Positions 7,135 through 48,603 are shown, counted from the first letter of the stretch. The stretch: DNA of 64,000 nt from an uncultured Erysipelotrichaceae bacterium (GCA_900315065.1 OMXQ01000006.1:7100-71099); one strand, 5' to 3'. Notes: generated by a model not told the origin, from the letters alone. Program-made: numbers and translations.

Positions 7135-7998
7135 ATGACGAAAATTGGTTTTGTGGGACTTGGAATTATGGGAGAAGCCATGTGCGGCAACATCGTTCGT
7201 AAGAATGACGGGCCTGTTTATGTCTTCGATTTCGTAAAGGAGAAGGTGGATAAGCTGGCAGAAATCGGTGCCATTGCATGTTCTTCTTCAAAGGAAGTTG
7301 CTGAAAAGTGCGATGTCTTTGTTTCCATGGTACCGAAGAGTGAACACTCAAGAGCTGTGTATGATGAAATTATCCCGGTATTGAGAAAAGGACAGCTGTG
7401 CATTGACATGAGTACCATTGATCCTTCTGTTTCCGTAGAAATTTCAAAGAAAGTAAAGGAAACCGGTGCAGAATTCATCGACGCACCAGTCGTCAAATCC
7501 AGACCGGCAGCCGAAGCAGGCAAGCTTGGCATTTATGTGGGCGGCAGTGAAGAAGCATACAGACAGGCACTTCCGATCCTTTCTTTCATGGGAGAGAATG
7601 TTATCCGCATGGGTGATAACGGCAGGGGCCTGGTCATGAAAATCTGTCACAATGCCCTTGTTTCCCAGATCCAGAACGGCGTCAATGAAACCAGCACCCT
7701 GGCCGCAAGAAACGGCATTGATATTCAGACTTTCGCTAAGGCAATCAGCTATGGCGGCGGGCAGAACTTCTATCTGGATTCCAAGAAGGACGTCATTGAA
7801 AAAGAAGACTTTACAACTGCTTTTTCCATTGCCAACATGCACAAGGATGTTCATATCTGTCTGAAGCTGGCAGAACAGACCAATACAAAAATGCCTGGTG
7901 AAGAAAACGCTGCCCGTGTCTATGACAAGGCAATGGAAGAAAACCTGGGCGGGGAAGACTTCGCGGCCACAATCAAGGTTGTCAGAGGCTTGAAATGA
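7135..7998 (+). CDS. NAD(P)-dependent beta-hydroxyacid dehydrogenase (candidate sulfolactaldehyde reductase, YihU-like)
   Basis: IGFVGLGIMG Rossmann motif, IDMSTIDP, FIDAPV, catalytic K in VMKICHN. Confidence 0.8.
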   Translation: MTKIGFVGLGIMGEAMCGNIVRKNDGPVYVFDFVKEKVDKLAEIGAIACSSSKEVAEKCDVFVSMVPKSEHSRAVYDEIIPVLRKGQLCIDMSTIDPSVSVEISKKVKETGAEFIDAPVVKSRPAAEAGKLGIYVGGSEEAYRQALPILSFMGENVIRMGDNGRGLVMKICHNALVSQIQNGVNETSTLAARNGIDIQTFAKAISYGGGQNFYLDSKKDVIEKEDFTTAFSIANMHKDVHICLKLAEQTNTKMPGEENAARVYDKAMEENLGGEDFAATIKVVRGLK

Positions 7999-14068: not shown

Positions 14069-14145
14069 GGCAAGTTGGTGAAGCGGCTTAACACACCGCC
14101 CTTTCACGGCGGCACTCACGGGTTCGAATCCCGTACTTGTCACCA
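14069..14145 (+). tRNA. tRNA-Glu (TTC)
   Basis: Cloverleaf; anticodon arm CCGCC-CT-TTC-AC-GGCGG; GGTTCGAATCC T-arm; encoded CCA. Confidence 0.95.
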
Positions 14146-14462: not shown

Positions 14463-14762
14463 TTATACTGCTGTTTTCTTTGCCATGATTTCATCGTGGA
14501 TCTTGTCACCGGTATGGTTGAACCCTAAACCGTGATAAGCCTGCCACAAGCTGTCCATTTCTTCCTGTGTCCGGACTGGTACTTCCTCAGCATCACGATA
14601 CTGATCATAAATTTGAAACATATCGTTGCGGAGAAGTGCACCGAGCGCGTCGTGCTCTGCTTTGTTTGCCGTTTTTACCTGTCTCAGCCTTGCAGCAAAG
14701 TAGCCGAGTAGTGCCGATACGACCGTGGACCATATCGGTGAGAGTAACTGCCAAAAGTTCAT
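14463..14762 (-). CDS. Lysis-cassette membrane protein (one N-terminal TM, LLRND...YHGLGFNH motif)
   Basis: 99 aa; directly downstream of the holin. Confidence 0.6.
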   Translation of the reverse strand: MNFWQLLSPIWSTVVSALLGYFAARLRQVKTANKAEHDALGALLRNDMFQIYDQYRDAEEVPVRTQEEMDSLWQAYHGLGFNHTGDKIHDEIMAKKTAV

Positions 14763-14998
14763 TATTCAGCACCACCGTTCCCGTCGTACTGTTCCTTTTT
14801 TGCTTCCTCGTAGGCTTTCACGCTCATGCCGATGCATGTTGCCACGAATCCGCCAAGGGCACCGCAGATCGTCGTCGCGACTGCAGTATGCTGCCAATTT
14901 ACTGCGATCCCAACGACACCGATAAAGGTTGTCAGGCCGGGAATAAAATAAATGGCCAGCCATTTAAGAAAATCATAAACTTTGTTCGATAACTTCAT
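14762..14998 (-). CDS. Holin, Dp-1 family
   Basis: MKLSNKVYDFLKWLA start, two TM helices, charged C-terminus. Confidence 0.85.
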   Translation of the reverse strand: MKLSNKVYDFLKWLAIYFIPGLTTFIGVVGIAVNWQHTAVATTICGALGGFVATCIGMSVKAYEEAKKEQYDGNGGAE

Positions 14999-15008
14999 AA
15001 GTATGTCC

Positions 15009-15956
15009 TCATGCTTTCTTGATATCTTTCAAATACATTTCAGCCCAGGTAATCCTTTTCCCTGAACGCTCCGCCTGCAGAACAGCTTTATCTCCATTGA
15101 TTTCGGAAATATAGTAAACATTATCGTACTGCGTCAGTCTCACGCCTGAAGTGTTTACCAGATTCACCGGCACCACCTGATCGCCAACTTTGAATGATTC
15201 TGCAGATGATCCGTTCGACGCGGTTGTAACGTAAACGTCATAGCCTGCAGCTTTCAGGATAGCGGCAGTATTGTTCGCATTGCTTTTGATCTTAAACGCG
15301 CCGGTCTGCACTTTCCAAAGCCCGCCGACATTTACCAGATAAGTGCTGTATCCGTCAGCCTTCAGTTTCTTTTCAAGTGCCTGGGCGTTTGCTTTTTCTT
15401 TGAAGGCTCCAACCTGAACGCGGTAAAGAACATCTGCAGCCGGCGTATCTGATCCAGCCAGTTTCTTATTTACCTGCTCAACAATGTACGGAAATTTTGC
15501 TCCGAGATAAGGGCCCGGGCACGCTGTTGACGCATACCACTTATGCATATGCAGGTTGGATCCGGCCTTTGTTCCGTCGAAATACAGCTTTTTGATTCCG
15601 TTTCTCTTGCAGATATCTGTCACCAGCTCAATGAGCCGGCGCATGACATAATCGGATACCGGCCAACTTCCGCCGTTTTCGCTGTTTGATACTTCGATCG
15701 TGATTGCGCGCTTGTCAATTTCCCAGCTTGATGTTGTCCACGGTCTCATGCTTTCATCGACATACTGGCCGATCCGGCCGTCCGATCCGATACCGTAAGT
15801 GCACGATCCTGTGCGTCTCAGCAATACATTTCCGAGTGTTTCCAGGCTCAGAACTCCGGCGCAGTGATGGATAACAATACGATCGATCTTGTTACCCTGG
15901 CGGCTGCTGCAGTTTCCGATCAGCCGCCTGTACTGTACTAATGAACTGTTACTCAT
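15009..15956 (-). CDS. Endolysin: Amidase_2 domain, two SPOR repeats, C-terminal SH3-like segment
   Basis: IDRIVIHHCAG, AITIEVSN, HKWYASTACPG; YRVQVGAF and WKVQTGAF SPOR repeats; start placed at MSNSSLV. Confidence 0.88.
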   Translation of the reverse strand: MSNSSLVQYRRLIGNCSSRQGNKIDRIVIHHCAGVLSLETLGNVLLRRTGSCTYGIGSDGRIGQYVDESMRPWTTSSWEIDKRAITIEVSNSENGGSWPVSDYVMRRLIELVTDICKRNGIKKLYFDGTKAGSNLHMHKWYASTACPGPYLGAKFPYIVEQVNKKLAGSDTPAADVLYRVQVGAFKEKANAQALEKKLKADGYSTYLVNVGGLWKVQTGAFKIKSNANNTAAILKAAGYDVYVTTASNGSSAESFKVGDQVVPVNLVNTSGVRLTQYDNVYYISEINGDKAVLQAERSGKRITWAEMYLKDIKKA

Positions 15957-16028
15957 GGTCTGGTTCGTCGTCTCCTCTCCCGTTTTCAAATTCTTCGTAA
16001 TCTTCAAAATCTTCTAATTCATCCGGCA

Positions 16029-16250
16029 TCATATGTTCTTCTCCTTTCTGCCTGCAGATAAAAAGCCGGGACTTTCGCTCCGGCTTTCAATCTCATTTAT
16101 TCTGTTTTCGTATTCATCGATGGCTCTGAATTGTGCCAGTTCCAGCATCATTTGCTGATTCAGCTGCAAAAGCTCTGCCGATAAGTCTGCATAAAACGCC
16201 GCAATCGTTATCCAATAGCTATTCGCCTGTTTCTTCGGATTCCGGATCAT
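16029..16250 (-). CDS. Small coiled-coil hypothetical phage protein (start uncertain)
   Basis: LLQLNQQMMLELAQFRAIDEYENRINEIE fills the gap between XkdX-like gene and endolysin. Confidence 0.4.
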   Translation of the reverse strand: MIRNPKKQANSYWITIAAFYADLSAELLQLNQQMMLELAQFRAIDEYENRINEIESRSESPGFLSAGRKEKNI

Positions 16251-16377
16251 TGTACGGCTTGCCTGTGATTTCTTCGTACTGTTCCGGTGTGATCCATGCG
16301 TTAGGTTCTACTGCGGCGCGTAATGATTCGTCATTCAGCCGGCCAGCGTTGTAAAGTCTTTTCAATCTTTCAAACAT
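16219..16377 (-). CDS. XkdX family protein (52 aa), not in the ORF track
   Basis: MFERLKRLYNAGRL...WITPEQYEEITGKPY translated by hand; TGATG coupling with upstream gene. Confidence 0.8.
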   Translation of the reverse strand: MFERLKRLYNAGRLNDESLRAAVEPNAWITPEQYEEITGKPYNDPESEETGE

Positions 16378-16646
16378 CAGAATAACCCTCCCATAAGAAT
16401 TGATACGGTCAAGTCGTCGATTGCTTCGTTCATTTCGGCCATTTCAGCTTTGTGCTGCAGCTGGTACTCCGTGATTGTGATTTCCCGGCTTTCGCATACC
16501 CATTCGGTATATGCTTCCGTGCCGGCGTCTTCATCAGCGTCGTGTACCACCGACCGGATATTCCGGCGCTGAATTAAAAAGCCGTCCGCGATCGCTTCGA
16601 CCTCAGCCGGCTGCTGTGAGCAGTGTTCCTCTTTCCATTCTGTCAT
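16377..16646 (-). CDS. Small tail-associated protein (XkdW-like position), 89 aa
   Basis: MTEWKEEHCSQ...AIDDLTVSILMGGLF; precedes XkdX; start overlaps the RT 3' end. Confidence 0.6.
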   Translation of the reverse strand: MTEWKEEHCSQQPAEVEAIADGFLIQRRNIRSVVHDADEDAGTEAYTEWVCESREITITEYQLQHKAEMAEMNEAIDDLTVSILMGGLF

Positions 16647-17757
16647 GCTGTTTATTTTCCTTTCTGTCCAGCCGTGAAACAAGCTGTTTCAAACGTTTCA
16701 CGTTTATGAATGGCTTTATATGCTGCAGATAACATGCGTACGAATCGGTGTATGTAAACCAGCCCATGTACGAAATCATAGCCTGCGCATGTCTCTTGAA
16801 TATCCGGCCGCCGGATTCTTTCCTGCGGCGGATCCGCTTTGCCATCCGTGTTGCTTTTAACATGATCCGCTTTCGGATCGTTACTGTAAAACGCCAGAAA
16901 ATGAAGCCCATAAAATCAAGGGGCTGTCCTTTTTCTTTATAAATGAATTTATTCACCTGGTAATTGTTTTTTAGCTTTAAGCGGAAGCGTCGCCCGATCA
17001 GCTTTTTGATTTCAACGATCAGGGCATGCAGCTTTCGCTTGTTTGGTCCGAATATCACAATGTCGTCCATATACCGCAGATAAATATCAAAACCGGATTC
17101 CGTTATAAACCGGTCCAGCGGTTCCAGCAGGTAATTGGCCAGCCATTGCGACAGGTAAAAGCCCAGAACTAAGCCGCGCCGGAAGCCTTCGTAGCATTTC
17201 CGGATGATATACAGAAACCAGTCGTCTTTTATCCGGGTCGCCAATTCCCTGATCATGATATCCATCCGGATACTATCAAAAAAGTGCCGGATATCCAGCT
17301 TGGCGAAATACTTAATGTTTTTACCTTTAGCAATCATCCGGCGCAGCTGGCGCATGCCATAGTGCGCGCCTTTCTTCGGCAGCGATCCGCAGGAAAACGG
17401 ATATGCTGTCCGTTCAATGATCGGCTGCAGAACAATAGCGATAATATGATGCAGCCATTGTTCGTGGATCTCCGGTTTGTACGTTGTGCGCCACTTTCCG
17501 TGTTCGTAGCGTCGTACCGCTTTATGTTTTGGCGGCGTGAATGCTTTTTCCGGTTCCGGCACTTCGCATGGCCTGGTATTGTAAATCATTTCCCGCATTG
17601 CCTGGCGTTCTTCTTCGTAATTCAGTTCTATATTGATAATCTCTGGCCTGTTGGTTTTATGCCGGCGCAGATTCTTAAAAGCCAGATCAATGACATCATT
17701 GTCCAGCATTCTGCGCCATAAATATTTGTATTGTTTGTTGCTTTGGTTCATTTTCAT
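16603..17757 (-). CDS. DGR reverse transcriptase
   Basis: YFAKLDIRHFFDSI, GLVLGFYLSQWLANY (DGR-type SQ motif), LRYMDDIVIF, LDFMGF; adjacent TR/VR pair. Confidence 0.95.
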   Translation of the reverse strand: MKMNQSNKQYKYLWRRMLDNDVIDLAFKNLRRHKTNRPEIINIELNYEEERQAMREMIYNTRPCEVPEPEKAFTPPKHKAVRRYEHGKWRTTYKPEIHEQWLHHIIAIVLQPIIERTAYPFSCGSLPKKGAHYGMRQLRRMIAKGKNIKYFAKLDIRHFFDSIRMDIMIRELATRIKDDWFLYIIRKCYEGFRRGLVLGFYLSQWLANYLLEPLDRFITESGFDIYLRYMDDIVIFGPNKRKLHALIVEIKKLIGRRFRLKLKNNYQVNKFIYKEKGQPLDFMGFIFWRFTVTIRKRIMLKATRMAKRIRRRKESGGRIFKRHAQAMISYMGWFTYTDSYACYLQHIKPFINVKRLKQLVSRLDRKENKQHDRMERGTLLTAAG

Positions 17758-17882
17758 ACAGTGATTTCTTTCTATCCTCTACCGGAGCGCAGGTGCGACC
17801 GCTTTACGTCCGGCCCTGTATCGAGTTTATTTCCACTCATCTTTCCAATAATGGCGAGTAAACGGCGTTTCAGCCGTCAGTG

Positions 17883-18087
17883 GTGTAGGATATCGAGCCG
17901 CATTTAATAGATTTCAAGATAGAAAATAGGGCGCCGCGCCATTGTTCCAGTTCGTATTGCCGGCCGTATTGTTCCAATTGCGAGCACGCGGCCCGCCATT
18001 TGCACCATTGTTGCAATTAGCAAAGCGAAGACAGACCGCCGACAGGCGGACAAGAACCCACTACGGCACGGCCCGATACCCCTACAC
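17883..18087 (-). ncRNA. Putative DGR template RNA core (TR enclosed by complementary flanks)
   Basis: GTGTAGGGGTATCGGGCCGT (18087-18068) pairs with GCGGCTCGATATCCTACAC (17901-17883) on the - strand. Confidence 0.6.
17929..18041 (-). repeat. DGR template repeat (TR), 113 bp
   Basis: Aligns without gaps to 18192-18304; 25 coding-strand adenines in 11 AAY, 2 ACG and 1 GCA codons. Confidence 0.97.
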
Positions 18088-18124
18088 AAATATTCAATTT
18101 TTAAAAATCCAACATTCCAGTGAC

Positions 18125-18172
18125 AAGGGGGAGAGCCCCCTTTGAACCCCCCGATGCGTCACGCTGTGACGC
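18125..18172. other. Two hairpins downstream of VR (candidate DGR homing cruciform elements)
   Basis: GCGTCAC-3nt-GTGACGC (18156-18172, overlaps target stop) and AAGGGGG-4nt-CCCCCTT (18125-18142). Confidence 0.7.
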
Positions 18173-19463
18173 CTACAGGTGGAAGAAGAACGGGCGCCGC
18201 GCCAAAGATCCAGGCCGCATTGCCGGCCGCAACGCTCCAATCGCGAGCACGCGGCCCGCCAGAAGCACCAAAGGCGCAATTAGCAAAGCGAAGACAGACC
18301 GCCGTGATGGTATTCTGATTTTCCGACGTATACGTACCGTCGCACGATGCCAGGGAAGTGCTTCCACGTCCGCCGTTAATTACCGGCACGCTTCCGTATC
18401 CTGGTATTGTTTTGAAAATGTGCGCATATTTCCACCCACTTGTCGGCGTTACTCCATCCGGAAAAACATCGATACCCGTATCAACATACGAAGCGCCGGT
18501 CGGATCATAGTTGTAATTCAGTCCTACCTTTACACGGCCGTTTACAATCACTTCGTACGGATCGCGCATATACTGATTCTGCGTGATCGGCACAATACTG
18601 TGGAAAACCTTATTCAGGGACTTATTGTCATTTGTTCCATAAAACATTCCCCCATTTACTACGGCATTAACCAGCATACCGTGCGTAGCCGTATCCGAAC
18701 TGTCGTACCCGTTCATATTACCATGACCGTATGCGCCCTGTAAGCCTGAAGTTTTTGCAAACATCATCAGAAGATCGATCAGTGTTTCCATAAGCCCGCC
18801 GCCAAGAAAATGTGCACGGCTTGAGAAGTTCTTAATATAAGTGTTCTGCGTTGCTGTGTTATGCGACATATCAGTCAGCAACCCGGAGATTGATTTCAGC
18901 TTGGAATCAACCAAGGCGCCGTAAAACATCGGAAGCCATACGCCTTCCAGCTCGTTGCCGTCCGGATCGATAAATCCGACTGCTGTAAATCCGGGCCTTT
19001 TTTCGAACGAAAACATAACATACCGGTCATTTCCCTGCATTACCTCGCGCTTATAAATTTTCGTGATCCAGGAAAAAGCGCCGCCGTCATATTCTGTATT
19101 CGCTACGTCGGAATTTCCACCGGCTGCCTTCTTTGAATAGTCGTTTTCATTCAGCTGATAATCTGGCACGCCATTACTGTGAACCATCCACGGCTTGCAG
19201 GCCGTGATCAGTGGGAAAGCCGCCCAGCTGTTAAGCTCGCACGTACCGGTCGAAAGATCCACGCTCAGCGGTGTATATGCGGCATTTACGCCGATATACT
19301 CAATGCGCTGCGCCGGTGCCAGAGTTTCGCAGTGCTCAATGAATCCATAAATGCCGTTAATTTCCGGAATGCCCAATCCGCTGCGAATGCCGCGCAGCTG
19401 TTCGATGAGTTCGTCCATCTGGTCATGATCCGGAAGCGGTAATTCTTTAATCAATTCTGCCAT
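18159..19463 (-). CDS. DGR target protein; putative receptor-binding/tail protein with C-terminal variable (CLec-like) region
   Basis: VR lies in its last ~50 codons; located after BppU in the tail module; CLec fold inferred from known DGR targets. Confidence 0.88.
   Translation of the reverse strand: MAELIKELPLPDHDQMDELIEQLRGIRSGLGIPEINGIYGFIEHCETLAPAQRIEYIGVNAAYTPLSVDLSTGTCELNSWAAFPLITACKPWMVHSNGVPDYQLNENDYSKKAAGGNSDVANTEYDGGAFSWITKIYKREVMQGNDRYVMFSFEKRPGFTAVGFIDPDGNELEGVWLPMFYGALVDSKLKSISGLLTDMSHNTATQNTYIKNFSSRAHFLGGGLMETLIDLLMMFAKTSGLQGAYGHGNMNGYDSSDTATHGMLVNAVVNGGMFYGTNDNKSLNKVFHSIVPITQNQYMRDPYEVIVNGRVKVGLNYNYDPTGASYVDTGIDVFPDGVTPTSGWKYAHIFKTIPGYGSVPVINGGRGSTSLASCDGTYTSENQNTITAVCLRFANCAFGASGGPRARDWSVAAGNAAWIFGAAPVLLPPVGVTA
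18192..18304 (-). repeat. DGR variable repeat (VR), 113 bp
   Basis: 18 mismatches to TR, all at TR adenines; 0 mismatches at 88 non-A positions. Confidence 0.97.
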
Positions 19464-19469
19464 ATGCTT

Positions 19470-20129
19470 TTATTCTCCTTCCTTATATCGCATGTACATG
19501 ATTCCGTCTGCCGCCTTTACATAAAAGCTGTAAGAAGCGGCGCCGGCATAGCCGGCCGCGTCGTCCCTGAACTGTTCAGCTTCATCGCGATATTCTTTAG
19601 CCTGATTTTTGTAGGCCAGAGCATCACTTGCGCTGCCAGCTGCCGCCGATGCACTGGACGAGGCTGCAGCTGCTTTTTCGGTTGCTGTCTGTGCTGCCGC
19701 AAGTGCCTGCGCAATATTTGCCACTGCTTCCATTACAGCCTGCATATCAGAATCAGAAATTACTGCATCATTTAGCGGCCCCGGTTCTACCATCATGATG
19801 AAATTCGCGGAACCGATGATTTCGGATCCGTTTTGCAGCATGACTTCCATAATAACAGGGCCTGGGCATGCGCTCATCTGTTCCTGCATGCCAATCGTTA
19901 CAGCTGCGGATTCTGTATCCACGGTCCCTTCATACGAGAAGCCTTTGCCGTCCGCCTTTTTGCCGTTCACCAGAGCCACGGTTCCGGACGGAATAGTAAA
20001 TTCCGATCCGCGGGCATGCAGCAGAAATTTCAGCTTTCGCCAGGTCTTATCAGTCTGCGAAACGTGGATCACCGGCACTACTGCGCCGGGTATGATATCC
20101 AGCTTCAATTCTATTGTCTGTGTTGCCAT
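19470..20129 (-). CDS. BppU-family upper baseplate protein
   Basis: VIHVSQTDK...GKKADGKG...EIIGSANFIMMVEPGP N-terminal domain plus Ala/Ser-rich coiled linker; start at MATQTI with AAGGGG SD. Confidence 0.8.
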   Translation of the reverse strand: MATQTIELKLDIIPGAVVPVIHVSQTDKTWRKLKFLLHARGSEFTIPSGTVALVNGKKADGKGFSYEGTVDTESAAVTIGMQEQMSACPGPVIMEVMLQNGSEIIGSANFIMMVEPGPLNDAVISDSDMQAVMEAVANIAQALAAAQTATEKAAAASSSASAAAGSASDALAYKNQAKEYRDEAEQFRDDAAGYAGAASYSFYVKAADGIMYMRYKEGE

Positions 20130-20146
20130 GATTTCCCCTTTCTGTT

Positions 20147-22897
20147 TTATTTGCCAAGTACGGCATGGCCGTTCCCGTCGTTGACGAAACCGAGCCCGTC
20201 GTAACCACTGCCGTTTATGTGAATACATAGCCCTTTGGCTGAATCGATTCCAATTGATGTATTTCCAAGCCTTAATTGTACCAAGCTATCCGATATCGTT
20301 AACTTTGCGTTACCCCTGGTTATGGTTATTTCGCCGGTGGCTGTTATGCTTATCGTTCCTTGAGAGATCATTGAAATTCCGCCGGCGGCTTGGAACATCA
20401 GCTTCGCCGTTTCTGTTAGGGCGACATAGCAGGATCCTCCGGTATCGTTGGCGATATATAACCCGGGGTTCGTGCTCGCTTGGTTATTATTTCTGTTATC
20501 GATGTGGCGTGAAGAATTGCCAAACTGAATATTTAAACGATGATCGTTCGCTGTACCGATTCGTGCCGGCAGATCTTGGCTGTAAAAATTGTAGGATCCG
20601 TTAACAAGCAAGGCAGTATTATAAGCGTCAGCGTCATTCTTTGCGTGTATAAATAACCCGTAAATCGTTTTGGTTTGCTGATCAACATAATCGTAAATAC
20701 TAAAATGCCCGCCGTTTGCGCGGACCGGAACCGTGGACAGATTGAAATCAAAAGTGAATCCTGACAATATTCCGGCGAGTATGTATTCCGCATTTATATA
20801 AAGCTGTCCGTTCTGCATAGTGATACCCTGCACGGTGCCGTTATCTGTCAGTCTATTAAACACTTCTTCACTGTCGAGGGAATTATCCAGCGCGGTAACG
20901 GCTGAATCATCGGTATATTTGTTCAGCTTTTGCCAATCAGCTGCAGCATACTGTGCGCCGGCGGCTTTTGCGGTCGTACACGTCAGGATGTCACCGCTTG
21001 ATCCCGTACACCAAAGATCACCTGTATCGTATGGCGGCACCGGCCTTGTTATGAATACGCGGCGTTTACCGTCTGCGGTGTCTTGAGCGTCGGAAGCGGC
21101 CGCCATTGCTGCGCTGATATCTTCGTCTGATATCCGGGTCCATACGTATGATCCGTTATCGAGCATGAACCGGTAAGCGTATCCCGTATCTTTGTCGTAA
21201 TAAAGATCACCTATATGGTTGTCTTTATCCGTCGTTGTCGCCCACTGTGATGCCGGAAGATTCGCCAGTGTTGGCGCTCCTGTGTAATACCAGGTCGTTA
21301 TATTCCCGTCGATCTGGTTCTGCAGGTCCGCAATATCCGGATTGTATGTAGCTGTAACGAAATCAGACAATGCCGCAGATGATGCTGCGGCCGCGATCTG
21401 TGCAGCCGTCTGGTTTCCGATCAATGTACCGGGTGCCAGCCGGAATTCGCCAGTGTCAAGGTTCCAGTAATTGTTTTCCTGCGCGTCCTGAATGATTCCG
21501 CCGATGATCTGTGCCGCATAAATGCGTAGCGTGTTCATCAGTTCCGTGGTAAATGATCCGTCCTGCATCCAGGCTGATACATACGGACCGTTTATACCGT
21601 TATGAGAATATGCGATGCCGTTCAGATTTTCCCGGCGGATATTGACCGCCGTTTCGATACTGTCGGTATCCAGCCAGTATTCTTCCTGAATGCGGCCGAG
21701 CGCGTCACGGACTATATATTTATGACCGCCGGATATACCTGTCATCATATCGGTGTTTTTCTTTATTGCCGTTTCCATAAACCCGAGCGCGCGTTCTGTT
21801 TCCTTCGTGATCTGTTCCTGCGTCTGCGCTATGGTCTTTGCCAATGTGCTGCGCACATTTCCCAGGTGAATGGAAATATACCGCTCTTTCAGAATGTCGT
21901 ACGTGTATTCCGTCACACGCGCCGACGCTTCAATATTCAGCGGTTCAAAGTTCACATGTACCGTGTCGAAAAGGTTCACCCGTTCCAGCGGCGCGATGTT
22001 TTTGTACTGTTCCGTCTGCCATAAAGCGACGAAAGAAACATCGATCGAAACTGTCGGCTTGTCCAGGTTGCTAGCTTCAATATATGCACGGCATCGTTCG
22101 TCGATCGCCGCCGGCGTGATCGTTGCGTCCTGGTCGAAATATTCCGAAAGATCCAGATTCAAAACACGCGGCTGATCGCTTGGCATGATCGTCTGCAGAT
22201 TGCCGAGAATCGTTGTAGTGCTCTCGCTGTTCTGCTGAATGACATACGGCATTACAGCTGTGTACATGTTTTCGATGCTTTCTTCCTGCTTTATGTCTGT
22301 CAGATTTTTGCCATACGAAATACGCACACCGTTATCCTGGCCACGGTGCACATGGTGCCGCACGGTCAGGTTATCCCACTCGTATTCCCCGCCGAATAAA
22401 TCCAAGATAGATCCGGATACGCCACCCAGGCAAGCCCGGAAGCTCTGCGGTATCTGCAGGTTAAACTGTGCCGTGTTATTCGTGCTGCCGCTTATCAGGT
22501 CGAACGGGTACAGCTCGGCATTTACCAGGTGCGACTTAATGCCGGCGCATGCCGCCTGTGCTCCGATCGCAGTAAACGGAAGCACCGATGTTTTGGCTAG
22601 GTCATACGTAATATGCTGGCACTGGATCTCTATTTTGCCATTCATCGGCTTGGAGATCTTTTTTATGCGGAATAACTGCAGGCTTGCTGTGTCGTTTGGC
22701 TTTGCCTTAATGATTCCGCCATAATGTAAATCATTGAAATGCCGACCACTCACCGGATACACAAGCGTAACCGTGTATGCGCCGTTTGCCACTTCATTGC
22801 ATTCTGCTTTTAAGCAGTCAAGCCGGCCGAGCCCGTTTGTCTGGTCCTGTGACAGCTCCGCCAGTGATTTACTATCGTCCATCAGTATTGGTTTCAT
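20147..22897 (-). CDS. Tail-associated lysin/tail spike (Tal, phage minor structural protein)
   Basis: NGLGRL, QLFRI, AQHITYDL-like, FGGEYEWDN, YGKNLTD, VNLFDTVHV motifs; follows Dit. Confidence 0.85.
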   Translation of the reverse strand: MKPILMDDSKSLAELSQDQTNGLGRLDCLKAECNEVANGAYTVTLVYPVSGRHFNDLHYGGIIKAKPNDTASLQLFRIKKISKPMNGKIEIQCQHITYDLAKTSVLPFTAIGAQAACAGIKSHLVNAELYPFDLISGSTNNTAQFNLQIPQSFRACLGGVSGSILDLFGGEYEWDNLTVRHHVHRGQDNGVRISYGKNLTDIKQEESIENMYTAVMPYVIQQNSESTTTILGNLQTIMPSDQPRVLNLDLSEYFDQDATITPAAIDERCRAYIEASNLDKPTVSIDVSFVALWQTEQYKNIAPLERVNLFDTVHVNFEPLNIEASARVTEYTYDILKERYISIHLGNVRSTLAKTIAQTQEQITKETERALGFMETAIKKNTDMMTGISGGHKYIVRDALGRIQEEYWLDTDSIETAVNIRRENLNGIAYSHNGINGPYVSAWMQDGSFTTELMNTLRIYAAQIIGGIIQDAQENNYWNLDTGEFRLAPGTLIGNQTAAQIAAAASSAALSDFVTATYNPDIADLQNQIDGNITTWYYTGAPTLANLPASQWATTTDKDNHIGDLYYDKDTGYAYRFMLDNGSYVWTRISDEDISAAMAAASDAQDTADGKRRVFITRPVPPYDTGDLWCTGSSGDILTCTTAKAAGAQYAAADWQKLNKYTDDSAVTALDNSLDSEEVFNRLTDNGTVQGITMQNGQLYINAEYILAGILSGFTFDFNLSTVPVRANGGHFSIYDYVDQQTKTIYGLFIHAKNDADAYNTALLVNGSYNFYSQDLPARIGTANDHRLNIQFGNSSRHIDNRNNNQASTNPGLYIANDTGGSCYVALTETAKLMFQAAGGISMISQGTISITATGEITITRGNAKLTISDSLVQLRLGNTSIGIDSAKGLCIHINGSGYDGLGFVNDGNGHAVLGK

Positions 22898-46344: not shown

Positions 46345-46938
46345 ATGACGCTCATCATTTTGGCGGCTATTGCCGTTGTACTGTTTATTGCTATCGATGC
46401 CATAATTCATCCGGAAAAGCAGGAAAAAGCACGTGCTGATATTCAGCGGCGAAAAGAAGAAAAGAAAAAGAAGAGAACGCCGGCTCCGGTCGTTTATCGT
46501 AAAACATTCGATGTCATTTCGGAAGACAAGAAATATGGCGTAATTGAATCCAGATTCGAAAAGAAGGAATTCTGGCAGAATGGTTTGTACCTCAGCAGTA
46601 TGCGCGAATTGAATGATGCCGGGTATGACGTTGGCGACATTATTTACAAATGGAACATTCAGCCATTAAGCTGCCGCGCCGATCCGAAAGAAAACGGCGC
46701 CGACATTTACGCGTCGGCTGATGGATCAGTATACGAATACATCGGAGTGATTCCGGATTTAGACGAAAGAAACAAGGATCTGTTTGTAGACAGTAAATTA
46801 ACTATAAAAGCCGAAGGTGGCACCGGTTACGAGATTCTTTACAATAGCAGCGCCCAGCGCCGGAAAAAAGGACCGGAGAAGTATTACCCCTGGCGGTTTT
46901 CCGTAAGCATAGAAAAGACGGTGGTTCCGGATGAGTAA
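46345..46938 (+). CDS. Membrane-anchored lysogeny-module protein (superinfection-exclusion position)
   Basis: N-terminal TM, basic linker, globular C-terminal domain; between cI and integrase. Confidence 0.6.
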   Translation: MTLIILAAIAVVLFIAIDAIIHPEKQEKARADIQRRKEEKKKKRTPAPVVYRKTFDVISEDKKYGVIESRFEKKEFWQNGLYLSSMRELNDAGYDVGDIIYKWNIQPLSCRADPKENGADIYASADGSVYEYIGVIPDLDERNKDLFVDSKLTIKAEGGTGYEILYNSSAQRRKKGPEKYYPWRFSVSIEKTVVPDE

Positions 46939-48490
46939 GAAGAAACCTGCAGAAAATACCGCTGTTAAGATTCCGGCCGTCATATATGCCAGGTATTCCA
47001 GCTCTGGCCAGCGCGAAGAATCCATCGAAGGCCAGATCCGAGAATGTACCGAATACGCGGAGCGACACGGCTTCGTAATCGTGGAACATTATACTGATAA
47101 GGCATTAACCGGCCGTACAGACAAACGCCCAGGATTTCAAAAAATGATCGCCGACAGCGAAAAATGCACATTTCAGGCTGTTATTTGCTGGAAAACCGAT
47201 CGGTTTGCCCGAAACAGGTACGATGCTGCCACGTACAAATACAAGCTGAAAAAGAACGGCGTCCGTTTGTATTATGCCCGGGAAGCTGTTCCGGAAGGCC
47301 CGGAAGGCATCATCCTGGAATCGGTTATGGAAGGCTTCGCGGAATATTACAGCGCCAATCTTTCTGAGAATGTAAAACGCGGATATTATGACAGTGCCCT
47401 GCAGTATAAAACCCTTGGCCATAAGGTGCTTGGATACCGGCGCAGCGCGTCCGATCAATACGAGATTGACCCGGAAACGGCGCCGATCGTTAAGCGGATC
47501 TTTGATGAATACGCCAGCGGCCGCAGCATGCAGGATATCATCGCCGATCTGAACGCCGAAGGATACAAAACCACCGCCGGCGGCCTGTTTAATAAATCCA
47601 GCCTGCGCAGAATTCTGCAGAACAAGAAGTATATCGGCGTATATGAATACCGCGACATATACGCCGAAGACGGCGTGCCGGCAATCATCGACCGCGATTT
47701 ATTCGACCGAGTGGCGGAGCGTCTTAAACTGAAAGCCCATGCGCCCAGAGCACGCGAAGGCGTCCGCTTCCTGCTTACCTCAAAATTATTCTGTGGATAC
47801 TGCGGCGAGCCCATGACGGGAGAAAGCGCACGCGGCGAACACGGCCAGACATATTACTATTACACATGTAATAACCGGAAGCGCGGCACATGCCGGAAAA
47901 AGCGAGTAAACAAGGAAGATTTCGAGAACTTTGTAATTTCCAGCCTGGTGGAAATTCTGCAGGATGATTATTATATTGAAACGCTGGCGGATCTCTGTTT
48001 GAAACAGATCGAAGAAACGCGGGACGACAGCACGCTGCAGATCATTGAGCGAAAGCAGAAGGAAAACCAGAAAGCAATCGACAATATGATAACGGCAATA
48101 AAAGCCGGGATCATAACCAGCAGCACGAAAGAAGCTCTGCAGGAATTGGAAACCGAACGGGAGCGCCTGCAGGTAGCATATGCCAAGGAAATAATGAAAA
48201 CACCGGATATCGACCGGGACCAGATTATTTTCATTTTGGACAAAATCCGAAAAGGCGATCCAGCCGACACACGATACCAGGTCCGGATCGTTGAAACGTT
48301 CCTGAATTCTATATATCTGTATGACGACGGCAAAACCGTCATACATTTGAATTTCAAGGGAGATAACGCTACCGTAACACTGGCGTATACAGAAAAGGCG
48401 GCGGCCAAAGCCGAACCAGTCAAAAGTTCGACTAATGAGCCGCCAGCCCTGCCATTATATTTTTACGGCTTTGAAAAAAATACCTTGTAA
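46931..48490 (+). CDS. Large serine recombinase (integrase)
   Basis: VIYARYSS catalytic Ser, DRFARNR, recombinase domain, CGYCG...YYYTC zinc ribbon, coiled coil. Confidence 0.95.
   Translation: MSKKKPAENTAVKIPAVIYARYSSSGQREESIEGQIRECTEYAERHGFVIVEHYTDKALTGRTDKRPGFQKMIADSEKCTFQAVICWKTDRFARNRYDAATYKYKLKKNGVRLYYAREAVPEGPEGIILESVMEGFAEYYSANLSENVKRGYYDSALQYKTLGHKVLGYRRSASDQYEIDPETAPIVKRIFDEYASGRSMQDIIADLNAEGYKTTAGGLFNKSSLRRILQNKKYIGVYEYRDIYAEDGVPAIIDRDLFDRVAERLKLKAHAPRAREGVRFLLTSKLFCGYCGEPMTGESARGEHGQTYYYYTCNNRKRGTCRKKRVNKEDFENFVISSLVEILQDDYYIETLADLCLKQIEETRDDSTLQIIERKQKENQKAIDNMITAIKAGIITSSTKEALQELETERERLQVAYAKEIMKTPDIDRDQIIFILDKIRKGDPADTRYQVRIVETFLNSIYLYDDGKTVIHLNFKGDNATVTLAYTEKAAAKAEPVKSSTNEPPALPLYFYGFEKNTL
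48447..48455 (+). repeat. att core CCCTGCCAT (right junction, inside integrase ORF)
   Basis: Identical to 14219-14227. Confidence 0.8.
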
Positions 48491-48526: not shown

Positions 48527-48603
48527 GGCAAGTTGGTGAAGCGGCTTAACACACCGCCCTTTCACGGCGGCACTCACGGGTTCGAATCCCGTACTTGTCA
48601 CCA
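48527..48603 (+). tRNA. tRNA-Glu (TTC), identical to 14069-14145
   Basis: 77/77 identity; own TTGTAA...TGnTAATAT promoter. Confidence 0.95.

Follow-up and report, generated by a model that had tools for sequence, protein, structure and literature searches.

Avd-less DGR cassette of a known accessory-less architecture, probably functional, in a prophage of an uncultured Erysipelotrichaceae bacterium

Can a DGR that carries neither avd nor any other recognised helper gene beside its reverse transcriptase (RT) be a working element, and is the cassette described here such a DGR? The question is raised by a locus in a 64,000-nucleotide stretch of DNA from an uncultured Erysipelotrichaceae bacterium (hereafter the window; positions are those of the window unless another locus is named). 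The cassette lies on the minus strand of a prophage of about 34 kb, which is complete between its att copies, two copies of tRNA-Glu(UUC) at 14069-14145 and 48527-48603, and which has a large serine recombinase gene (46931-48490) at its right end. In other samples the same phage was found with its lysis end joined to the recombinase gene (L128-L133), an arrangement that fits a circular or a differently integrated form.

Read along the minus strand, the locus begins with a tail-fibre-like protein (19470..20228) that matched several tail-fibre PHROGs and, weakly and below the cut-off, BppU_N (PF10651, E=0.0025). The DGR target gene follows (18159..19463); it encodes a 434-aa tail protein (phrog_5302, E=7e-74) that gave no match to Pfam or to PDB sequences and bears the VR at its C-terminus. 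Its stop codon is the TGA at 18159-18161; an in-frame GTAG further upstream was considered as the stop and rejected. The VR (18192..18304) and the TR (17929..18041, with 25 adenines), both of 113 nt, were placed by their ungapped alignment, and the spacer between TR and RT is occupied by a structured RNA (17770..17887) described below. The RT gene itself (16603..17757) encodes 384 aa with a pI of 10.2 and matched RVT_1 and phrog_1423. Its 3' end is overlapped by 44 nt by an ORF for an acidic protein of 89 aa (16380..16646, pI 4.5, phrog_20201), which we call X. Beyond X lie a gene for an XkdX-family protein of 52 aa (16220..16378), assigned through a PF09693 match of the identical gene in L128-L135, and two lysis genes identified by family scans, for an endolysin (15009-16007) and a holin (14762-14998). 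A further ORF of 73 aa (16029-16250, minus strand) overlaps the 3' end of the XkdX gene. Every sister assembly has a gene call for it, and it had no family match.

The short gaps reported in a first-pass annotation of this DNA proved exact: 117 nt separate the target stop from the TR, and 171 nt separate the TR from the RT ATG. The sole ORFs inside 17758-18158 are frames of 43-67 aa that overlap the TR on either strand. Leaving the accessory status of X aside, the locus has the layout of Architecture A1, with a TR-RT core, an adjacent upstream target and no gene-sized ORF in either gap. The description of the flanking genes as BppU-like upstream and a tail-associated/XkdX pair downstream, with no Avd-like ORF among them, was also borne out, but the "tail-associated" ORF is X, which is not an arbitrary neighbour; it is kept after the RT throughout the lineage.

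Such a layout has precedents. A survey of 372 DGRs found avd in 74% of them (Wu, Gingery et al. 2018, NAR 46:11; PMC5758913), and 75 of the 372 had Architecture A, in which target, TR and RT occur with no accessory genes. The RTs of "Lineage 3" in that survey are avd-less, avd could not be found by profile in other parts of their genomes, and Avd-independent homing was already proposed there (PMC5758913). The helper-less layout is therefore an already described DGR class and not a new kind of system.

To place the RT of the window, 68 loci encoding relatives of it were compared. The VR and TR precede the RT in 34 of the 35 related loci scanned, at spacings of 66-570 nt from VR to TR (below 310 nt in all but L018) and 110-340 nt from TR to the RT match; spacings this short leave no room for avd. 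Avd was found beside only the most distant RTs among the 68 loci. In a maximum-likelihood tree the RT of the window fell in a 24-member clade with 100/100 support, in which the relatives are all Avd-less, and a second clade of 33 RTs (clade II) is Avd-less as well. The Avd-type RTs, namely that of BPP-1 (bRT), L062, L063, L065 and two second DGRs, clustered together (98/88) apart from the clade of the window.

Several features of the related loci deserve mention in their own right. Three genomes that have an Avd-less DGR of the window's lineage also have an Avd-type DGR with the order avd-TR-RT (L137, G001:C38; L139, G013:C2; L140, G024:C17), so that Avd-less and Avd-type elements coexist in one host. 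In some Gastranaerophilales DGRs the RT is preceded by two TR-like copies in tandem, each of which matches the one VR (L012:~7627-7883, L018:7631-7883). At L028:8214-9104, from an Alphaproteobacteria MAG, the RT frame is split under table 11, the TR/VR pair shows 25 adenine-only mismatches, and a different acidic ORF, of 95 aa, follows the RT. The split frame could reflect a pseudogene, assembly errors or another genetic code.

The translated RT contains the motifs LGFYLSQ and RYMDDIV (with YMDD) and is of DGR type, and its best PDB match with phmmer was bRT. An AF2 model of the protein (pLDDT 87) had the active state of bRT, 8ub7_A, as its best Foldseek match, with a TM score of 0.77 on the query and 0.89 on the target and an rmsd of 2.7 A. 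The RT exceeds bRT by 56 aa, and relative to bRT it has an insertion of about 12 residues in the N-terminal extension and a C-terminal helix (residues 353-383). The possibility that an Avd-like domain is fused to the RT was considered on this comparison and rejected, since the short insertion and the C-terminal helix are the only additions and the RTs of clade II hardly exceed bRT in length. A weak second RT-like ORF of 226 aa was seen on host contig C107, near 10551 on the plus strand (E=3.8e-6 against the DGR RT).

The claim of the first-pass annotation that the cassette has no avd is upheld by the genome-wide searches given below; the companion claim, that it has no other accessory gene, is not established, because the acidic X follows the RT in 57 of the 68 related loci, as found by HMM. 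Of the alternatives to a helper-less DGR, the one that survives best is that the cassette is not minimal and that X is the non-Avd accessory factor of this lineage, perhaps a partner of the very basic RT. A possible parallel would be CH1, an acidic protein that was restricted to avd-less DGRs in the survey of Wu et al. 2018 (PMC5758913). The association of X with the RT is close. In 35 of 36 loci examined in detail, X follows the RT on the same strand, at -79 to +76 nt from the end of the RT match. RT loci that carry X come from Bacillota, Melainabacteria, Elusimicrobiota, Margulisiibacteriota and one archaeal MAG; among the 68 RT-related loci X was never seen with Avd-type RTs, and conserved synteny stops right after X. 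Pairwise identities of X and RT are correlated (r=0.93; 103 loci, none of whose pairs is discordant), and when loci were sampled by X instead, the RT was directly upstream in 49 of 57. The family itself (phrog_20201) comprises at least 2,492 clusters at 90% identity. An XkdW-like or otherwise known fold was rejected for X, which had no Pfam, PDB-sequence or Foldseek match.

Other observations weigh against such a role. In the remaining 8 of the 57 X-anchored loci, from about four lineages, X is intact without an RT and directly follows a target-like tail protein of about 590-600 aa whose C-terminus resembles the VR-bearing ends of DGR targets; no RVT_1 match was found anywhere in one of these records (36 kb, about 80% complete). 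The indel that distinguishes L088 from L087 consists of exactly TR and RT and leaves X outside; in L100 and L105 the genes further upstream differ, and the shared sequence starts 33 nt ahead of X. Fibre chaperones and tail accessory proteins are typically encoded where X is, between a tail-fibre gene and the XkdX and lysis genes. Members of the family are about 87 aa long (176-187 aa in Gastranaerophilales) and acidic, with a pI of 4.1-5.0, and the AF2 model of X is a four-stranded beta-sheet with a C-terminal helix and not a helix bundle, unlike the nucleic-acid-binding Avd. Avd was accordingly rejected as an identity for X, on its acidity and predicted fold. We consider it most likely that X is a partner of the tail protein, either a chaperone or a small tail component, and that TR and RT are inserted between the two genes. 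An accessory role for X in the DGR appears unlikely, though it is the alternative to be taken most seriously, and the cassette can be called "minimal" only if X proves irrelevant. The broader proposal, that X is a new DGR accessory family that replaces Avd in two deep phage-borne RT clades together with the RT-4, RT-17 and RT-18 spacer RNAs, is just as doubtful; if it were true, the "minimal" cassette would be a different, three-part machine of RT, RNA and acidic partner.

Related phages with and without the TR+RT segment of about 1.45 kb between the target-like tail gene and X were found in several groups (L087 and L089 against L088; L103-L105 and L108 against L100-L102; L091; L118). Its presence or absence in such close relatives points to recent gain or loss of the DGR core, which leaves a target-like tail gene without an adjacent RT. 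The X homologues in viral contigs were collected with single-sequence queries, the X alignment having no sufficiently conserved stretch; a query with the long form of X found close relatives only, and a search of 399 genomes across the class found X only in the window's own genome. At L057:2263-2748 an acidic ORF of 161 aa (pI 4.6) overlaps the RT end and includes the stretch "NIKEV", which is X-like; in size and charge this ORF fits the description of CH1. No link between X and CH1 could be drawn from the Bacteroides loci L066 and L067, which carry only RT fragments.

Avd itself was sought in the whole assembly, which comprises 2.52 Mb in 144 contigs and is 96% complete. Six-frame searches with PF05635, NF033474 (DGR Avd) and TIGR02436 gave no match at E<=10, although the control genomes gave matches, and neither a custom HMM, built from BPP-1 Avd and four Avd-like proteins, nor phmmer found any at the same threshold among 14,590 six-frame ORFs of the genome. 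As positive controls, PF05635 detected Avd-like ORFs in the genomes of three relatives, each adjoining a second, different RT in the order avd-TR-RT, and jackhmmer recovered Avd beside the four most distant RT relatives. HRDC (PF00570) had no match in the genome at E<=1. The search of phage and host with Avd and HRDC profiles that the first-pass annotation had proposed is thus negative throughout the 2.52-Mb genome, and the five profile or sequence searches for Avd revealed no homologue away from the cassette. General Pfam and PHROG scans of the ten minus-strand ORFs between 12622 and 20228 gave no match to a MutS-like (MSL) protein. Most of the small minus-strand ORFs of the prophage that were scanned could be assigned (connector proteins, small terminase subunit, HNH endonuclease, SSB, RusA and others). 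None was a basic ORF of about 100-135 aa without a family, and the family-less ones for which charge was computed were acidic.

An Avd equivalent might nevertheless have been missed, through extreme divergence or because it is encoded by the host on the roughly 4% of the genome that is unassembled. The completeness of the MAG (96%, in 144 contigs) and the several small prophage ORFs without a family match leave some space for it. However, the five independent searches were empty even at E<=10, the prophage is whole from one tRNA-Glu att copy to the other, and no scanned small ORF without a family was both basic and Avd-sized. The genomes of relatives tell the same story: 22 of 26 also lack a credible match, and where Avd is present it lies beside a different, second RT. 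Wu et al. likewise obtained negative results for avd-less DGRs. A missed Avd is therefore very improbable.

Evidence on activity comes from the TR/VR pair. The whole genome contains one TR, one VR and one DGR RT. In the 113-nt ungapped TR/VR alignment each of the 18 mismatches coincides with a TR adenine, and 31 nt separate the end of the VR from the target stop. RTs that are 99% identical over 96% of the length occur on contigs of at least nine other samples, five of which carry the VR-TR region. These five contigs and the window, six independent assemblies of one phage, were aligned over about 1 kb from the 3' end of the target through the start of the RT; the population data on the VR are thus assembled contigs and not reads. 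Variable VR columns lay at TR adenines in 24 of 26 cases, as against an adenine share in the TR of only 22%, and many of these columns had more than two states. At one of the two other columns, a substitution in the TR at 18034 is mirrored at VR position 18297 in the same genomes, which indicates transfer of information from TR to VR. The TR, spacer and RT 5' end are otherwise invariant among the six assemblies. These patterns are strong evidence that the cassette diversifies its VR adenine-specifically in nature, that is, that it would carry out mutagenic homing without Avd. The idea that it is a decaying relic, in which Avd was lost and diversification ended, has only the missing avd in its favour and can be dismissed, given an intact and conserved RT ORF, a VR that differs from the TR at adenines only and varies at TR-adenine positions across six samples, and a TR substitution that was copied to the VR. 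Since natural populations demonstrate that the cassette is active, it is best read as independent of Avd. The first-pass description of the locus as an Avd-independent minimal DGR is upheld in this respect but not as a new minimal form, Architecture A and an avd-less lineage having been known since 2018.

[quoted passage not shown] A GC-rich element, GGCGCGGCGCCC, ends both TR and VR, and the flanks diverge thereafter. Just 3' of the VR, a hairpin GCGUCAC-AGC-GUGACGC (18156..18172) can be read from the sequence; it covers the last codons and the stop of the target gene, and relatives have analogous hairpins at the same place. This hairpin sits at the position of the target-recognition hairpin of BPP-1, and its putative function is inferred from that phage (PMC3240598). 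A second GC hairpin, GGGGG-CUCU-CCCCC (18127..18140), is preceded by a G-run, and its motif is kept in relatives: GGGGG...CCCCC elements occur after the VR in subclade A, in L008, in L011 and in Gastranaerophilales loci.

By its match to a known RNA family, the TR-RT spacer is not empty but is a conserved structured RNA. It matched Rfam RT-4 (RF03025) over model positions 1-118 of 118 with 126.3 bits, against a gathering score of 73.5. RT-4 also adjoins the RT in L001-L007 (119-128 bits), and as a control the spacer of BPP-1 matched RF03022 (Phage_DGR). In sister Avd-less DGR clades, other families occupy the same position, directly upstream of the RT and downstream of the TR: RT-17 (RF03020) at L030:7900-8000, L038:7907-7996 and L041:7881-7967, and RT-18 (RF03021) at L010:7920-7994. 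Weinberg et al. 2017 (PMC5737381) published RT-4 among their orphan "RT" motifs; they tied only RT-10 to a DGR, that of BPP-1, and speculated on a DGR connection of the others. Three orphan Rfam families, RT-4, RT-17 and RT-18, thereby gain a likely role as DGR spacer RNAs. A scan for consensus promoters and terminators around the TR gave no more than chance. In four Avd-less DGRs of clade II (L024, L026, L029 and L030), a strong covarying stem-loop of about 9 bp was seen just 3' of the TR, at the site where Handa et al. put the "Avd-binding" stem-loop of Avd-containing DGRs; Avd is absent in clade II.

Two long-range pairings connect the RT-4 region with the surroundings of the TR. In the first, a 5' arm GGGGUAUCGGGCCGUG (18067..18082) pairs with a 3' arm UGCGGCUCGAUAUCCU (17887..17902), which abuts the 5' end of RT-4, to form a 16-bp helix that encloses the TR and is present in the MFE fold. 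Covariation in this helix was examined in 33 distinct RT-4 DGR RNAs from IMG/VR, with the arms set by sequence anchors only. Paired cells made up 81.6% of the total, against 65.3% after shuffling and 40-52% when the partner was slid, and 12 of the 16 pairs had changes on both sides. The covariation score was 0.474 as compared with 0.185 for shuffled alignments, and 0 of 500 shuffles scored as high. The enclosing helix was also found in Gastranaerophilales and clade II loci.

The second pairing is shorter. The element UUUUCUAUC (17918..17926) lies at the boundary of TR/VR homology, and its UUCUAUC is complementary to the GAUAGAA(A) in which RT-4 ends (17770-17776); we propose it as the template strand of a priming duplex. 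UUCUAUC:GAUAGAA is invariant within the RT-4 subclade, and support for the pairing comes from comparison between subclades only, where the boundary and spacer strands change together: UUCUUAUC:GAUAAGAA, ACUUAUU:AAUAAGU, CUUACUAA:UUAGUAAG, and further AUGCACAAA:UUUGUGCAU and AUGCAUUAAA:UUUAAUGCAU. A priming-type pair followed by an A-rich run was found in most loci, with four covarying sequence solutions between subclades. Unconstrained RNAduplex runs of the TR tail against the spacer were noisy and returned mostly alternative GC-rich pairings; a contiguous-helix search and manual comparison were used in their place. The contiguous-helix score was 8.1 as against 6.3 for shuffled sequences, with 6% of shuffles as high, a modest difference. 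These data give qualitative support to the view that UUCUAUC:GAUAGAA may be a priming-type duplex of the kind found in BPP-1.

We put at about three in four the probability that this is a functional DGR of the known accessory-less architecture, with target, TR and RT on one strand, belonging to a large phage-borne RT lineage that is without Avd throughout. Such an element could work as follows. A transcript would run from just upstream of the TR into the RT gene, and the 16-bp long-range helix would enclose the TR in it. The 3' GAUAGAA of the RT-4 spacer would be presented to UUCUAUC at the 3' boundary of the TR, so that template and primer form a duplex with adenosines after it, as they do in the RNA of BPP-1. 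The RT, predicted to have a bRT-like fold over its whole length, would be cis-primed and would copy the TR with misincorporation at adenines, and the cDNA would take the place of the VR in the tail-protein gene, with the GC-rich VR end and the hairpins downstream of it as guides. The scaffolding role that Avd has in BPP-1 would be dispensable here, or be taken by the RNA or the RT itself or by a non-Avd partner. Three points temper this explanation: the conserved X could be a required partner, a host factor could sit on a contig missing from the 96% complete assembly, and the population evidence comes from assembled contigs and not from reads.

How DGRs manage to work in the absence of Avd is a question that dates from 2018. 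Our literature search found no reconstituted Avd-less DGR, and the bench-studied DGRs that it did find all carry Avd (BPP-1 and Bacteroides, and Legionella according to Wu et al.). The present element is a good and evidently active test case. It is compact and well delimited, at about 1.5 kb counted between 18082 in the 5' arm and the stop codon of the RT, X being optional, and its RNA elements are defined well enough to be mutated. If RT and RNA suffice, DGR-based targeted mutagenesis would gain a chassis smaller than that of BPP-1.

It remains to compare the cassette with known systems. [quoted passage not shown] The DGRs with CH1 (Architecture E, Lineage 3a, Bacteroides; Wu et al. 2018) share with ours a small acidic protein without motifs (pI 4.7 for CH1, 4.1-5.0 for X) that adjoins the DGR only where avd, HRDC and MSL are absent. 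In a comparison by description only, however, CH1 is longer, at 160-169 aa against about 87 aa for X, and is confined to Bacteroides relatives. With Architecture A1 and Lineage 3 of the same survey the cassette agrees in gene order, in strand, in the lack of avd, HRDC or any recognised accessory gene in cassette or genome, in the clade-wide nature of this absence in the RT tree, and in a context of phages and gut Firmicutes. Set against Lineage 3, again as described, the lineage of the window differs in now having evidence of natural activity, a spacer RNA family and a conserved downstream ORF.

The DGR of Bordetella phage BPP-1 (mtd-avd-TR-brt) resembles that of the window in its tail-fibre target at the junction of tail and lysis genes, in the predicted RT fold (TM 0.89 to bRT, 8ub7), in adenine-specific mutagenesis and in a structured TR-RT spacer of a sister Rfam family, RT-4 in the window and Phage_DGR/RT-10 in BPP-1. 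One difference is Avd, which the DGR of the window does not have; in BPP-1 it is essential and binds the N-terminal extension of bRT and a stem-loop of the spacer. The insertion in the RT of the window falls in that same N-terminal extension, the Avd-binding part of bRT. RNA elements of the same types are seen in the bRT-Avd-RNA RNP of BPP-1 (PDB 8ub7; Handa et al. 2024 preprint, bioRxiv 10.1101/2023.10.23.563531). The enclosing helix is the counterpart, by type, of the "cPRT Stop" duplex in that RNP, and the proposed pairing of the 3' end of the TR with the spacer, ahead of adenosines, is like the TR:Sp priming duplex of the BPP-1 DGR RNA.
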